Positions 22,708 through 31,410 of a DNA stretch of 64,000 nt are shown in pieces. Every line of letters starts with the position of its first letter. The first letter of the stretch is position 1. Source of the DNA: Lophium mytilinum (lineage: Eukaryota); contig MU004195.1 of assembly GCA_010093605.1 (NCBI GenBank), positions 1,379,566 through 1,443,565 on the forward strand, read 5' to 3'. The notes beneath the pieces are model-generated. The model searched no databases, was not told the origin of the DNA, and saw nothing but the letters and a program-made list of their open reading frames with translations. The position numbers and the translations under genes are program-made.

Positions 22708-23641
22708 CTACCCCCAAGTTCCCCTAGAATTATAACTATGCTGCTCAAAGTCTCCACTACGGTGTCTCTTCAACAGATCGTATGCGAGACCGGGTATGTC
22801 CTTAACAACCGCCTCAACCTCCGGCTTGTCCAGGATCGCCGAATGCTCCAACATAACCTTCACAAGCGGCTCCCGTAAGCCTAAGTCCACATCCAGTGTG
22901 GTTTCAAAGACGACGCGGATAGCAGTAGGGAACTCTTCGTGTGTCCAGCCAGTCGTCACCGCAGCGGTGAATCGCTCCTGTGCGAGGAGCTTCAGGCCCT
23001 TGATATTGTATTTGTCTGCTATGGCGTACATCTTCGCGTGGAAGACGAGGCATGGGAAGCCTTCCGAGGGCTTTGGGAAGTCTTGTGACCGTCGTACCTT
23101 TTTCCCCCTTTTTAGAACTAGTGGAACAGGTCGCGAGCTTTGTGCCCTGGGTGCAAACGGATCGAAAAAGTCGTCAGGACTTGCTTCCATACCAGGGTCG
23201 GGCGCCTGTGCTTTGTCGCTTGTAGGCTCTCCCCGCGTCATATTGAGCACCGAGTAGTCGAGATGGTAAAAGTAGTATACCATAGCCTTGACGTGTTCGG
23301 GTTCGTCATCATGCAGCGTCATTTCAGCACTTTCAACTTCCTGCGATTTACAACACCGTTAGTCTAACTTCTAGGTTCGTACTGGGAAAACACGAAGGGA
23401 TCTACCTTGCCACCAAATCTGGAAGATGCAGCAAAGACCTCGGACCGCGGAAAGACGATTGCCCGGTGGACATTGTGTGTCTCGGACCCACAGATGATTT
23501 TGAAATCAGAGTAATCTGCGGACTTGAACACACTGATTGAAGTTTTGATGAGCGTGACAGCCTCGTCCCTAAACATGTCTGAACTTACGAGGCTAAGGAC
23601 TGGAGGAGGTCAGACTGCAGCGAGGCCTGCAGTTCAGCCAT
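22708..23641 (-). CDS. BTB/POZ-domain protein, paralog 1, 270 aa
   Basis: Exons 23641-23589, 23532-23406, 23340-22708. YSDFKIICGSETHNVHRAIVFPRS...GKE...LHDDEPEHVKAMVYYFY...HAKMYAIADKYNI. Confidence 0.9.
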
Positions 23642-24145: not shown

Positions 24146-24931
24146 CTAATCATAATCATATTCATCTACTGCTTCTGGAATCTCCACAGCAAGATGGCAA
24201 GAGTAATCCTGGCGATGTCTCCTAAAGAGCTCATACGAGAGCTCAGAGATGTCTTTCACGACTGTCTCTACCTCCTTCTTATCCAGAAGCGACGACTTCT
24301 CAAGCAAAACATCCACTATGATGTCTCGAAGACCAAGATCCGTTTCCGGCGTCGTCTCGTAGGCAATGCGTATCGCGGTGGGAAACTCGTCGTGCGACCA
24401 ATCCTCTTCCACGGCTCCAGTGAAGCGCACCTTTGCCGTCTGCTTCAGATCCTCGATGTTGTACTTGTCCGCTAGGGCGTACATGTGGGCATGGAAGACA
24501 AGACCGGGGGCGGAAGGAGTGGGAACAAGGTAAATAAGATGGTAGAAATAGTAGACCATAGCCTGGACATGCTCAGGTTCGTCGCCGTGCAGAGTGATCT
24601 CGTCTCTCTCAGCTTCCTATAATTTGGGAACTCGTTAGTAGAGAAGACTTCTCTAGGCTCTTTCTAGTGTTTTCTCACCTGGCCACCAAATCTGCAGGAT
24701 GCAGCGAGATATTCGCATCGCGGGAAGATGATCGCCTTGTGTACGCGATGCGTCTCAGATCCACAAATGATTTTGAAATCGGAATAGTCCTCGGATCTGA
24801 ATAAACTAGTTGCGGAACGCCTCAGTAAAATGCCTTCATTTTTATAGGGATTTATAACAGCGAACTTACGTATCTAAGGATGCAACAAGCTGGGTTTGTA
24901 GCCTTTTCTGTAATCTATCCATGGAGGCCAT
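24146..24931 (-). CDS. BTB/POZ-domain protein, paralog 2, 219 aa
   Basis: Exons 24931-24870, 24805-24679, 24616-24146. YSDFKIICGSETHRVHKAIIFPRC...LHGDEPEHVQAMVYYFY...HAHMYALADKYNI. Confidence 0.9.
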
Positions 24932-25686: not shown

Positions 25687-26980
25687 CGCTCAGGATCCGA
25701 CGTATCCGCAGATACCTGCCTCTTCTTCTTCGTGAAGGAGATGCTTCGGAGTAGGCGCAGCGGCCTTGCGGGCTTATGCTGATGCGGAGCTGGCGGAGCT
25801 GGCGAGCGAGGGTATAGATGCAGGCTTTTAGAGTTTGTGAACACGTCTCCGGTTTGCTCTTGCGTCAGAGGCGGGTCGTGGAAAGACGTGGCAGGTTTGC
25901 GGTTCGCCCGAATGAGGATGAAAACGTAGGCAAAGACGGAGGGCGGGCGCTGGACGTGGTGTTGTGGATCGCGGTACATGGAGTGCGCTACTACACCTTC
26001 AATATGTGTAGGTAGGTAACTTAGACAATAGATTCCGAGTGTGGTTCCAAAGAGCTCCGGAGATGCTACCGTGCTTTGGTGCATGAGGGGACGATGTCGG
26101 AGCTGTCCAGCGCCTCCGAGACATTCTGCGCACTTTATCGATGTCTATGTTCTTTATCGAACCTAATCTCTTTGATCTCGCCATCGAGGTCTTCTTGGCT
26201 GTGGGGTGCGCGGTAAGCGTGGTTGAGCCTCCGCATCCGGTGCGTTTCTTTGTCCCGACACCACTTTCTCTTTGCTACCCAGAGGCGTTCGCTTCGCTAT
26301 TGGGTTTCGATTTCGAAATCTAGGCTCTCCGAATGTCTCGCCTTATGGTATTCTGGCCTTTTGCAAACCTTTTCTCGACCTCGAGCGGGTGTGGGACATC
26401 CCCAGATGCTGTCTTCTTTCGGGCGACGACGTAAGATGAGTCCGCGGAGGGAGTTCCGGACGGTGTAGGGATATGTATCTCTGATTTCAGCTGTTGTTGA
26501 AATGTCGAGCTTCGCTGTAGACATCTGGCAAGCGCGCTAAGCCTGTCGGACCGCGAGAGGTTGGGGTGTTAGTCGAGTTTCTCTTGAGACTCTGGAATGT
26601 CTGAGGAACTTGATTCGCGTGAGAGCGGGTAGATGGACGAAGGCACAGAATTATCGGGTAGCTGTAAAGTTTTAGTGCGTGGGAAAGACCAAGAGAGAGA
26701 AAAGTCAATTACGACTTTATTTTCAATAACGCGTGTATACAGAGAGGCATACGCCGTCTAGAGCTTCTGTGTGCTGGCCCGAGGTTTCCTATAGGCTTGG
26801 ATTGGGGTCTATGTTAGAAGTGAGCTCACTCCTTCCAGGAGATTAGTGTTGTAGAGCGGTAACCGCAAAAGAGCAAAAAGACGGCCTATTACAAATAACC
26901 TTCTTTAGCCCACGACCACCGCCCTAAACACCACAACGCCTCTCCATATAATAGATATGGCAAAAAAAGATTAAAAGAGC

Positions 26981-27201
26981 AAAAACACCACCTCCCCCGA
27001 TGGGAGGTGTAGAAAACCCGTTCTCCAGGTTTTCTCCGTAGCCGGTTCACTTGCTCACGCCCGTAGGTTAGCTTATTGCAAGTACCGTATATGCTAATTC
27101 TCGCTTTGGGAATCGAACCCGGGGCGAGTTGGCGACGTCGGCCGGCTCGGTTGGTGTGGGGCGGTGCTCGGAGGGAGAGCGGGACCAACTAGGCAAAGCT
27201 G
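26981..27201 (-). ncRNA. Candidate RNA polymerase III (type-2 promoter) structured ncRNA, unknown family
   Basis: On the minus strand: A-box-like TTGCCTAGTTGG (27196-27185), perfect B box GGTTCGATTCC (27119-27109), hairpins at 27097-27068, 27035-27011 and 27009-26989, then T5, T4 and T7 runs (26985-26962). TATA-like TATATAA about 40 nt upstream. No plausible ORF. Confidence 0.7.
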
Positions 27202-27646
27202 TTTGTTAGTGATATACGGCCAAAATAAACTCAATTATATACCCTGATTCAACGCGCCACGCCACAGGTATATACAATTCAGTGACTAGGCCTCGGGAAT
27301 CTACTCGGCCTGTGTACGACTCTGTCAGCGAGGTTCTCAAAATGCAATATGCTCATCTCACCTCACTGTATGTTGCTGCGACGACGAAATCCGTCCTTCA
27401 CGCCCCAGCAGCGCCATCACCACTGCCCAAGCCATCTCACCCCCGCCATCCGCCTGCGCTCGCCGCTCATAAAGCTCAACGCGACTTCACCACCGGCTTC
27501 ATCACCGACTTCTCCCGCCCCTGTGTCTCCCCCCTGAATCTCACCACGGCCACCGACAACGCCGGCATTCTGAGGATCTAGCCACCATCACCACCCTCAA
27601 CGCCCTTCACCAGCCAGCGTCGCGACCCAGGCCGCACTGCCGTCCT

Positions 27647-27698
27647 CCTCAACGCCAGACCTCAACGCCAGACCTCAACGCCAGACCCCAACGCCAGA
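27647..27698 (+). repeat. Tandem 13-mer (CCTCAACGCCAGA) x4
   Basis: Three perfect units and one single-mismatch unit; related CTCAACGC words also at about 27475, 27596 and 27756. Confidence 0.9.
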
Positions 27699-28285
27699 CC
27701 CTCGCGGCAACCTCAATGCGCACCTCGCTCTCAGCTCCGACGTCACCACACCCAGCTCAACGCCCTTAATCACAGGAATGCAAGCATGTCTCACCTTACG
27801 GAATGCATACGCGGCGATGATATGCCAACCTTTACACTCCATGGAACAGGAATGGGAAAACATGAGAAGGCGATAAGAGAAGCTGGGAGTAGTAGGGGAA
27901 GGCATGCATGCATTAGGGTAGGGTGGGATGATGAGATGAGCGAGGCATGTACATAGGGGAGGGAATACAATGAGGCTAGGCAAGGCGATGATATGAGCGC
28001 GGCACCAAGATATCCTTCTTTCTTTCTTTCTAGAGAGCACGGAGGGAATGCGCGAGGCGGTAGACAGATAGATAAGTAGAGGAAATCATAGCATTCGTCG
28101 CGAAAGCCTACAAAGTCATACCATCTGATCTAAACCCAAGGAAGCAAAGGAGAGAAAGTACCAAAAGAACGATATACACAAAAGGACAACAAACCATAAC
28201 AAACCAAATACACAAGAAGCCTTCCAATCAATTTGCCCTTCCCTCTCCCTCCAATCCCACCGTCCCACCAAACCCCCTCTCCCCT

Positions 28286-29173
28286 CTACTTCCCACTCCG
28301 ATACATCCCCCACATACTCCTCATCCGCGCCACCTGCCCCACCGTAAACCCGGTATAACACGCATCCGTCGAATAATCCATAATATTATGCACCGAATCC
28401 ATCCCGGGCTGCGTCGGACAACTATCCTTCCCGGGACTCCCCGTCGGACACCCATCCGTACTCGTACTCTGCACCGGCGTATCGTCAATAAAATCCCCCG
28501 TACCCGCGCAGCTATTCCCCTCAAACACATGCAGCAACCCCAACCAATGCCCCGTCTCATGCACCGCCGTCATCCCCTGATCATACCCATCCACATCCCC
28601 GCCCGGCATCGTGCCCGCCTGCACACTACACCCATCATTCGCATAAACCGACGGCGCTGGCGTCCCGGGCCCGATAGACGACGGCAGCGTGCACTTCCCG
28701 AGCACGGACCCGGCGAGGTCCGTCTGGAAGTAGAGGTTGAGGGTGCTGTATTTCCCCTGGCGCAGGCCCTTCTTCATCGCGAGGTCGTCGGCCCCCGCGC
28801 CCACGGCCCACGCGTCGTTGACGGTCCAGGTGATGTTGAGCAGGTTGAAAGCGATTTTGTAGGGCGCGTAGGCTGTGTTGAGCGCGTCGAGCTGCTTCTG
28901 CGGCATGTCGGACGTGATGTCGTCTTTCTTGTCGCTGGTCGCGATGATGTGGAACACGGCGTCGACCTTGATGGGGGTGTTGGCGTCGTCGCGCGCGAGA
29001 TGGGCGGCGCGGGCGGCGGGCGAGCCAGCTTTTTCGTCCGTGTGGAGGTCGTTGAGCGTGGACATGAATTCTTTTGTGGCGGCGTCGACGTCGGTGCCGC
29101 AGTCGAAGTGCTTGTATTCCGTTGCTGCGGCCGCGAGGGCCAGCGAGGCAAGGAGGAGCGGTTGGAATATCAT
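28286..29173 (-). CDS. Secreted M43 (pappalysin/ulilysin-like) zinc metalloprotease
   Basis: Intronless 295 aa. Signal peptide MIFQPLLLASLALAAAA, prodomain CGT, MKKGLRQGKYSTLNLYF, zinc motif HETGHWLGLLH, Met-turn NIMDY. Confidence 0.93.
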   Translation of the reverse strand: MIFQPLLLASLALAAAATEYKHFDCGTDVDAATKEFMSTLNDLHTDEKAGSPAARAAHLARDDANTPIKVDAVFHIIATSDKKDDITSDMPQKQLDALNTAYAPYKIAFNLLNITWTVNDAWAVGAGADDLAMKKGLRQGKYSTLNLYFQTDLAGSVLGKCTLPSSIGPGTPAPSVYANDGCSVQAGTMPGGDVDGYDQGMTAVHETGHWLGLLHVFEGNSCAGTGDFIDDTPVQSTSTDGCPTGSPGKDSCPTQPGMDSVHNIMDYSTDACYTGFTVGQVARMRSMWGMYRSGK

Positions 29174-29837: not shown

Positions 29838-31410
29838 TCATGCCGAGTCACCCGGTCTGACACTCCGCCCGGTTGCAGTTGCAGTGGAAGGCTGGTCATT
29901 ATTCCAGGTAAGATAGGTATGATCGCCAAGTTTCCTAGGATAAGAGAGTCAGAGAGCGGCGTCATAGCCAGTTGGGGTTTGGAGACTCACCTTGGTTTGA
30001 TGAGGTGAGTGGCTGTGAACAGCGCGCCTAGCAGTATACAAATGCCGCCCACTACGACGTAAGCGATGCCCAAGAACGGATTCTTGCCACCCATGACCGT
30101 TCTTGTTGAGATTAGGATGGACTTTGTGCCGCCGTATTGCGAGACCTCAAAATCTTCTTCGAGTTAGCCGAGTGTTGTAGAGAGAGGCAAGACGGTAACA
30201 TACTCTCCCAAATCTTGATTCGGTAGGTACCCGTCTTCAAGACGTCATGATCATTCCTCGCCGCCAGCTTGCTGAAGGTAGGCAGACCAGCTGTCCTCAT
30301 CCAGACCTGGAAGGCTTCATCCGTGTGAAGGTCCGGAATGCCCCGCTCATCAGTGTATCCATCCTTCGGATATCTGTTTCGCCAGTTCGGCGGCACTGCA
30401 ACTTCCTTGGCAGTGTACTTTGTCTTCCCGTAGAGATCGGCTTCGCTGCTCCAGGCAATACCCTTCTGTGTCAGGTTATAAGGTGTGGCTTTGCCGTTAT
30501 CATTCTGGGTCAGAGCGGTGAAATTGTCGTAAGTATCATTGAAAAGGGAATTGGCGATTAAGCCGCAAGGGTAGTAAGGGAGATGAGTGTCCGGGTCCAA
30601 TTGAAGAGGATCGCAGTCTCCAGAGTTGATTGCGCTCGCGGATTTGGCATCTCCCTTCAGCTGATCAGTGTCTATGGACTTGACATATCGTCGATGGTTC
30701 TGGTAGAAGTTTGTGAGGCGGTAATAGAACAGGATTGGAGGATGGATGTCGTTAGGAATGTCGAACTGAAGCACGCAGACGTTCGTATTCAGCGACACTT
30801 GTGAGGAGTAACTGTAATTCTCGGTGGCATGGCCCCATTTAGGGTGTTGTCCACCATTAAGCGCAGTCTTGAAATGCGATGTCACACGGCTCGAGGGCAT
30901 TGGGTCAAGCGAATCTGTTTTGTTCACATCACGATTGGCTGTGGTCGGAGGTGACTTCGTGAAGCAGTCGGTGTAGTCGATGGCAAGCTCTTGCACCTAG
31001 ACCGCGCCATAGAATAAGCACTTTCCCTCTAGCATCTACGAAAGCAGTGGATATGTGTATTGGACTGACCTGCGAGCTAGCCCATATCAGGAGACCTCCG
31101 ATAGGTGCAAATAGGATGCCGACGATGAAGAAGAGAGGGAGGACGGTTTTTGGGGTGAGGATGGGTCTGAGGTTCAGTCAGCTTGAGAGTTTGGGAGCAA
31201 AACAACACAGCTGTGAGAACATACTGCCAGGCCTTTAGCCGTTGCTGCCGGAACGCGGTATCTAATTCACGGTGAGTATGGGCTCTCGAGAATGGGTATT
31301 GGAGACGTCGCACTGGCGGGCCTCCTGCTCTTTGTCTTCTTGGTGTCTTCGTTGTGGGGATCCTGCGTCTCTATCGAGTCCTCGTGGCGGACCTGCTGTG
31401 TCTGCGACAT
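29838..31410 (-). CDS. CDC50: CDC50/LEM3-family P4-ATPase (flippase) beta subunit, multi-exon
   Basis: Begins MSQTQ at 31410. NTAFRQQRLKAWQ, FYYRLTNFYQNHRRYVKS, YPCGLIANSLFND, VWMRTAGLPTFSKL, MGGKNPFLGIAY, KLGDHTYLTWNN; TGA at 29840-29838; several GT-AG introns. Confidence 0.93.

Follow-up and report, generated by a model that had tools for sequence, protein, structure and literature searches.

Layout of the locus

The stretch analysed here, called the window below, comprises 64,000 nucleotides (nt) of Lophium mytilinum (assembly GCA_010093605.1, contig MU004195.1, positions 1,379,566 to 1,443,565 of the forward strand), and all coordinates given are positions of this 64-kilobase (kb) window. 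It contains a unit of about 250 nt, all features of which are read on the minus strand, and this unit belongs to a family of dispersed repeats with few copies and is not a single-copy sequence. Judged from its letters, the organization supports a type-2 style unit of RNA polymerase III (Pol III), composed of a degenerate promoter head resembling a transfer RNA (tRNA), a structured 3' part unrelated to tRNA, and oligo-T terminators. The features of the unit and its immediate surroundings are, in 5' to 3' order of the minus strand:

27241-27235, minus: TATATAA, 25-31 nt upstream of the inferred 5' boundary.
27229-27211, minus: candidate upstream half of a degenerate target-site duplication, ending exactly at the inferred 5' boundary.
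27212/27210 to 26962 (end of T7), minus: the whole repeated unit, about 250 nt, delimited by depth excess and by contig breaks at 27212 and 26962-26988.
27196-27185, minus: A-box-like motif TTGCCTAGTTGG, with one mismatch to TRGCNNAGTNGG, which we take to be the consensus and used for scoring.
27184-27120, minus: C-rich spacer of 65 nt between the A and B boxes, differing in length among copies.
27119-27109, minus: perfect B box GGTTCGATTCC, 65 nt after the A-box-like motif.
Between the B box and the 10 bp hairpin, minus: unrelated sequence of about 70 nt.
27087-27078 with 27054-27043, minus: central helix, -9.8 kcal/mol alone in a nested reading.
27035-27026 with 27020-27011, minus: hairpin of 10 base pairs (bp), AGAAAACCUG / CGGGUUUUCU, -13.6 kcal/mol.
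27009-27002 with 26996-26989, minus: terminal GC-rich 8 bp hairpin CACCUCCC / GGGAGGUG, -16.0 kcal/mol.
26985-26962, minus: T-rich tail with putative terminators, reading T5, GCTC, T4, AATC, T7 in the sequence.
26985-26981, 26976-26973 and 26968-26962, minus: the T5, T4 and T7 runs of this tail.
26968-26954, minus: candidate downstream half of the degenerate target-site duplication, overlapping T7.
26882-26867, minus: second tail motif GT(C)TTTTTGCTCTTTT, about 100 nt downstream of the tail of the unit.

A preliminary description of this locus had listed TATATAA, the A-box-like motif, the B box 65 nt later, the T5, T4 and T7 runs and the hairpins, and had read them as a Pol III-type promoter layout dependent on transcription factor IIIC (TFIIIC). 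All these motifs lie on the minus strand where they were described, and the layout holds, with its A-box-like motif (one mismatch), its perfect B box and its oligo-T runs. The TATATAA motif may be an upstream TATA-like element of Pol III, or flank sequence only. The B box GGTTCGATTCC has its sole match within the 64 kb at this place, compared with 0.15 matches expected, and 15 of 100 shuffled sequences contain at least one. The arrangement of promoter and terminator is not ascribed to chance, because complete sets of A box, B box and T5 are expected about 0.0003 times per window when the frequencies at which A-box-like words, B boxes and T runs of five or more occur in it are roughly multiplied.

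Search for known RNA families

The window contains no tRNA gene detectable with ARAGORN, and a rerun at three standard or intron settings and at -ps70 likewise returned none; at -ps80 with -i0,150 only two calls appear, both implausible, with introns of 26-69 nt. Rfam 15 yields no match at the gathering score over the whole window. At E<=10 the region 26700-27500 has four weak and unrelated matches only (mir-335, MIR9672, SNORD95 and U7), and none to tRNA, 5S ribosomal RNA (rRNA), U6, signal recognition particle (SRP) RNA, RNase P/MRP RNA or ribozymes. These results agree with the preliminary description, which had seen no cloverleaf and no identity with tRNA, 5S, U6, SRP, RNase P/MRP or small nucleolar RNA (snoRNA); the Rfam search that it had proposed as a check leaves the unit without a known family. 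Six strings of 16-21 nt taken from the unit have no occurrence in a full-text literature search.

Several candidates were rejected individually. For a C/D or H/ACA snoRNA, neither C/D boxes nor a 3' ACA are seen by eye. The resemblance to U6-like RNA extends over about 12 nt only, as seen by eye, and has no counterpart in Rfam. A 5S fusion of the type known from Yarrowia lacks a 5S match in Rfam, and a hammerhead-type ribozyme lacks core motifs by eye as well as an Rfam match.

Copies in public sequencing runs

Parts of 26800-27400 are carried by five public runs, and contigs of four of these (X1, X3, X4 and X5) were aligned to 26500-27700 at a likeness of at least 80%. All runs consist of contigs, and the depths given in the following are sums over contigs, not copy numbers. 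X1 is possibly the sample from which the window came and X3 belongs at least to the same species, and the two are not mutually independent. None of the runs is recorded as RNA; the assignment of X3 to RNA is a guess, and its even coverage of the intergenic flank resembles that of DNA. X4 and X5 are air-metagenome runs with small shares, taken as copies of relatives only. The evidence for multiple copies comes from one organism and two low-depth relatives.

The summed contig depth of X1 is 158.9 in the left and 121.3 in the right flank. Over 26951-27237 its successive bins reach 515, 787, 915, 726, 1669, 1314 and 945, followed by 608, 308 and 185. X3 has a depth of 15.7 in the flank and of 179, 145, 147, 104, 112 and 86 in the unit over 26951-27196. 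The excess in both runs is confined to about 26951-27237.

The contigs break at the ends of the unit. The flanking contig of X3 equals the window over 26500-27002 (503 identical nt), and the own-locus contig of X1 (12 kb) stops at 27002. Only part of the sequence lies on the stretch in 13 of the 28 pieces of X1 and in 5 of the 11 pieces of X3, with loose ends at 26982 (X1 and X3), 26988 and 26962 (X3). Past these loose ends the pieces continue with the same GCTCTTT-(G/A)ATC-T6-7 tail and then enter at least four flanks unlike that of the window. At the opposite side, one contig of X3 departs from the window sequence at 27212, which lies about 9 nt upstream of the tRNA-like +1 position.

The relatives contribute fewer sequences. 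X5 possesses two contigs of 151 nt, one with 9 differences in 143 nt, the other with 4 differences and a 13-nt insertion in 122 nt. In X4, a 4.9-kb contig contains the unit at the same locus, with flanks differing by about 7-8%.

The unit is not a unique gene, because the depth excess is confined to it, contigs break at its ends, and at least four different flanks follow its tail. The preliminary description had proposed a unique, unrecognised structured non-coding RNA (ncRNA) gene with an H-type pseudoknot. Such a gene would account for the motifs and complementarities, which are present, and for the lack of a known family; with the copies just described, and with the folding energies, the 1-nt loop and the majority mismatch reported below, it is very improbable. 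The same description had named dispersed copies with target-site duplications as the mark of a short interspersed element (SINE). Dispersed copies are indeed found, both in depth and in differing flanks, and target-site duplications are suggestive only.

Inside the window neither a second copy nor the tail of a long interspersed element (LINE) was found with blastn of the unit and of 26300-27900, apart from a 16-nt tail motif. Gapped alignment of the unit to its flanks is non-significant, with 47 of 300 shuffles as good downstream and 45 of 300 upstream. A metagenome scan with a 20-nt pattern of B box plus body hit a single bacterial locus (L001), GC-rich and without tRNA or further likeness, which was dismissed as a chance match. 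A prokaryote genome scan with a 23-nt hairpin pattern returned no matches.

Fold of the unit

The 221-nt unit folds with -80.5 kcal/mol (z = -2.5; 4 of 200 shuffles equally good), and its 128-nt 3' part also folds better than shuffled sequences (z = -3.2; 1 of 200 equally good). With a small inner hairpin added, the central helix becomes part of an ordinary nested fold worth -15.0 kcal/mol, and the minimum free energy folds of the larger pieces (221 nt and 128 nt) use the same nested helix. The preliminary description had combined this pairing with a first hairpin (27097-27089 with 27076-27068) into an H-type pseudoknot. Its complementarity is present, but the pseudoknot itself is not borne out: the first hairpin reaches only -2.8 kcal/mol versus -9.8 kcal/mol for the nested helix, loop L1 of the pseudoknot geometry would have to cross a 10 bp helix with 1 nt, and the commonest variant (A27051>U, minus strand) leaves a U.U mismatch 27081/27051 in the central helix. 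On the computed energies, the pairing is better read as a nested hairpin.

The two hairpins that had been described 3' of this region are both found, as the 10 bp and the 8 bp hairpin listed above. The proposed closing helix GCTTTG/CAAAGC of the 5' domain is broken in most copies by C27198>G, and X4 lacks three A's of its 3' side. The majority letters at 27051, which mismatches the central helix, and at 27198, which breaks the closing helix, speak against a conserved structure.

Variation among copies

The variant tallies refer to the differences listed among the contigs, mostly other than those of X4, and were mapped onto the computed folds. The head is the most widely seen part of the unit (all-contig depth of X1 about 2011 at 27157, with another letter in 6 contigs), the terminal hairpin has a depth of 800-1120 at 26994/27004, and the body comes last, with about 490-500 at 27022-27090. 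The summed depth of X1 peaks over the spacer between the A and B boxes (1314-1669), where other copies have 6, 7 or 13 additional nt inserted at 27165. The window copy carries the minority letter at 27198, 27202, 27157, 27051 and 27090.

Positions 27004 and 26994, which pair with each other in the terminal hairpin, always change together from C-G to U-A, in 3 contigs of X1, 2 of X3 and 1 of X5. By a rough estimate the chance of such a linked change is a few percent, which is suggestive and not proof. Both changes of X5 in the 10 bp hairpin (27022 and 27024) are located in its loop. One divergent copy has changes at 27044, 27045 and 27052 that keep wobble pairs of the central helix, and in addition a 1-nt insertion in the stem of the 10 bp hairpin. 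The small deletions of X4 at 27105, 27118 and 27121 lie in runs of A, G and C beside the B box, the core of which can stay intact.

These patterns bear on the possibility of a small family of functional Pol III ncRNA genes, in which the tRNA-like head has no function other than that of an internal or leader promoter. RPR1 and SNR52 of yeast are examples, with A and B boxes in a degenerate tRNA-like 5' segment that drive a downstream non-tRNA RNA ending at an oligo-T run. The stable RNA would here correspond to the structured 3' region, about 120-130 nt that terminate in a hairpin and a U-tail, and its copies would be kept by selection, not by retroposition. Such a family could explain the intact A box, B box and terminators, the z-score of -3.2 of the 3' part, the compensatory pair of the terminal hairpin together with the wobble pairs kept at 27044, 27045 and 27052, the upstream TATA-like region common to one other copy, and the same-locus unit in X4 despite flanks about 7-8% different. 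However, the body, expected to be the functional part, occurs in fewer contigs than head and tail, the majority variant places the U.U mismatch 27081/27051 in the central helix, and the spacer is not constant in length. Furthermore, the copies have the exact sequence between the T runs in common, which terminators alone do not need, and neither Rfam nor the literature search with strings of the unit provides a relative. We consider functional Pol III genes of this kind unlikely, though they are the main alternative to the SINE discussed below.

The known genes differ in further respects. RPR1 and SNR52 are single-copy, and their downstream RNAs belong to known families (RNase P RNA and C/D snoRNA), whereas the Lophium unit is multi-copy and without an Rfam match; with its body less shared than head and tail, it does not show the pattern of a single-copy gene with a leader promoter. 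The tRNA-5S rRNA units of an ascomycete are similar: they occur as multiple scattered copies, and in each of them Pol III transcribes a downstream RNA from a promoter of tRNA type. They possess a real tRNA as head and 5S rRNA (about 120 nt long) downstream, in contrast to the Lophium unit with neither cloverleaf nor 5S match. By analogy with BC1, BC200 and snaR, which are SINE-derived or lineage-specific Pol III RNAs, the family might instead be, or might also have become, a small set of Pol III genes of an ascomycete lineage with a stable structured RNA of about 120-250 nt and a 3' end formed by a hairpin plus U-tail. Conservation of the locus in X4 and the compensatory change that preserves the terminal hairpin go with this lineage-specific reading, which has a small share of the probability.

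Proposed interpretation as a short interspersed element

The unit (27212-26962, minus strand) is probably a copy of a low-copy, T-tailed, tRNA-derived SINE. A SINE fits best because it combines a Pol III head without cloverleaf, a body unrelated to tRNA and a conserved 3' hairpin with T-rich tail, and because the family has few copies with differing flanks, a head and tail more widely shared than the body, and a variable spacer.

Several points weigh against a SINE, among them the nature of the depth values and the possible origin of the window from X1, both given above. The 5' boundary is defined by one contig diverging at 27212 and one ending at 27210. The region 27213-27258, TATATAA included, is present at about 85% identity in at least one other copy (X1 record 6). 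These 46 nt or so weigh against simple retroposition because a retroposed Pol III transcript should not carry upstream sequence. A strict local alignment of the flanks lacks significance, 330 of 1000 shuffles being as good. A gap-tolerant comparison of the 21 nt ending at the 5' boundary with the tail region, for which the scoring was chosen after the strict test, aligns 27229-27211 with 26968-26954 in 15 matches and 3 gaps; an equal or better score is reached by 35 of 2000 shuffles and by 8 of 2000 21-mers drawn at random from the window. The downstream half of this candidate duplication overlaps the T7 run that is present in other copies, and a target-site duplication is suggestive only. Finally, the same-locus unit of X4, with its B-box core possibly intact, is equally compatible with a conserved gene and with an old insertion.

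Some of these points would also suit a spread at the level of DNA, through segmental duplication or inside another mobile element, of a decayed tRNA-derived piece for which Pol III transcription is unneeded today. The likeness upstream of the presumed start (X1 record 6, to 27258), the occurrence of the 114-nt repeat 27220-27333 elsewhere without the unit, the unclear target-site duplication and the second tail motif 100 nt downstream are consistent with it. On the other side, most contigs that cover the head do not reach beyond about 27212. Within about 100 nt the depth drops from 945-1669 to 308 and then 185, a drop to which double counting of overlapping own-locus contigs contributes. The limits of the repeat coincide with Pol III start and terminator, and by eye there are neither terminal inverted repeats nor Helitron-type ends. 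DNA-level spread is quite unlikely on this balance. A miniature inverted-repeat transposable element (MITE) or Helitron was rejected on the same inspection by eye, which found no terminal inverted repeats and no CTRR end and in which no dedicated tool was run.

Two repeats beside the unit are observations in their own right. The 114 nt at 27220-27333, just upstream of the unit, recur at about 87% in a 5.6-kb contig of X1 (record 7) without the unit, and look like a second, independent short repeat. The tail motif GTCTTTTTGCTCTTTT at 26882-26867 has a 13-mer core found at two places only in the 64 kb (0 of 500 shuffles as good); it could be what is left of an older, truncated copy or of another tail.

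Comparison with described SINEs

A described SINE family that is likewise from an ascomycete is AfuSINE2 of Aspergillus fumigatus, which according to the excerpts of its description is 140-493 bp long, has a very low copy number and internal A and B boxes, and possesses 5' regions without cloverleaf fold followed by a tRNA-unrelated region (PMC5063351). The Lophium unit resembles it in ascomycete host, length, low copy number, internal promoter and lack of a cloverleaf, and AfuSINE2-1a possesses the identical B box GGTTCGATTCC after a long spacer between A and B boxes (PMC5063351, excerpts). Beyond the B box, comparison by eye with the printed sequences reveals no likeness, and CCTAGTTGG and GCTCTTTT do not occur in that paper (PMC5063351). 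The excerpts further describe AfuSINE2-1a as ending in ACT repeats, with a 3' end common with a Tad1/I-clade LINE, whereas the Lophium unit ends in T runs (PMC5063351).

In its tail the unit resembles the Au-like SINEs, which in the excerpted account end in a T stretch and not in poly(A), have a 3' hairpin with compensatory mutations that is shared with RTE LINEs, show T stretches near their insertion sites, and are known from plants, lizards and mammals (PMC6007223). The tRNA-type head, the T5/T4/T7 tail and the linked change of C27004-G26994 to U-A are points of likeness to this account (PMC6007223). The likeness is one of description only: as far as the excerpts go, Au-like SINEs are described outside fungi, and membership needs a 3' sequence common with a LINE of the RTE clade (PMC6007223).

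Proposed mechanism and significance

For the preferred reading as a SINE, we infer transcription, retroposition and a partner LINE. TFIIIC would bind the A and B boxes that lie inside the degenerate tRNA-like head, and Pol III would start about 10 nt upstream of the A box and end in the oligo-T runs, with T5 possibly read through in part to T7. In the resulting RNA of about 250 nt, the two stable 3' hairpins and the U-rich end could act as handle for a LINE-encoded reverse transcriptase, which would copy the RNA into new genomic sites.

The striking Pol III features of the locus trace to a repeat family, and the readings as a pseudoknot and as a new class of ncRNA are unsupported. SINEs are rare and poorly catalogued in fungi. 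We know of no T-tailed SINE with a conserved 3' hairpin in ascomycetes, a point that our searches did not address directly. If the unit is such an element, its T-rich tail would indicate which kind of LINE is its partner. Once catalogued, the family could help to type strains by their insertions and would account for some of the orphan Pol III promoters that lie near genes; should its copies prove conserved and expressed, it would instead deserve study as a lineage-specific Pol III RNA.

Neighbouring loci

Downstream of the unit, the intergenic segment 26698-26829 differs in the X4 contig, which has 70 other letters in place of 130 nt, an indel or replacement. At 28289-29173 (minus strand) lies an intact gene for a secreted-type Peptidase_M43 metalloprotease; the ESM Atlas contains its exact sequence, and the clusters nearest to it there are from ascomycetes. 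It adjoins a gene of the CDC50/LEM3 family at 30112-30996 (minus strand). Both are unremarkable genes, and they assign the window to the Ascomycota.

Two neighbouring open reading frames at 22708-23358 and 24146-24616 (minus strand) have no Pfam match at E<=0.01. They encode clearly similar proteins that share, for example, the motifs ...HGDEPEHV.AMVYYFYHL... and ...ADKYNI..LK..., and from their sequences they look like a tandem paralogous pair.

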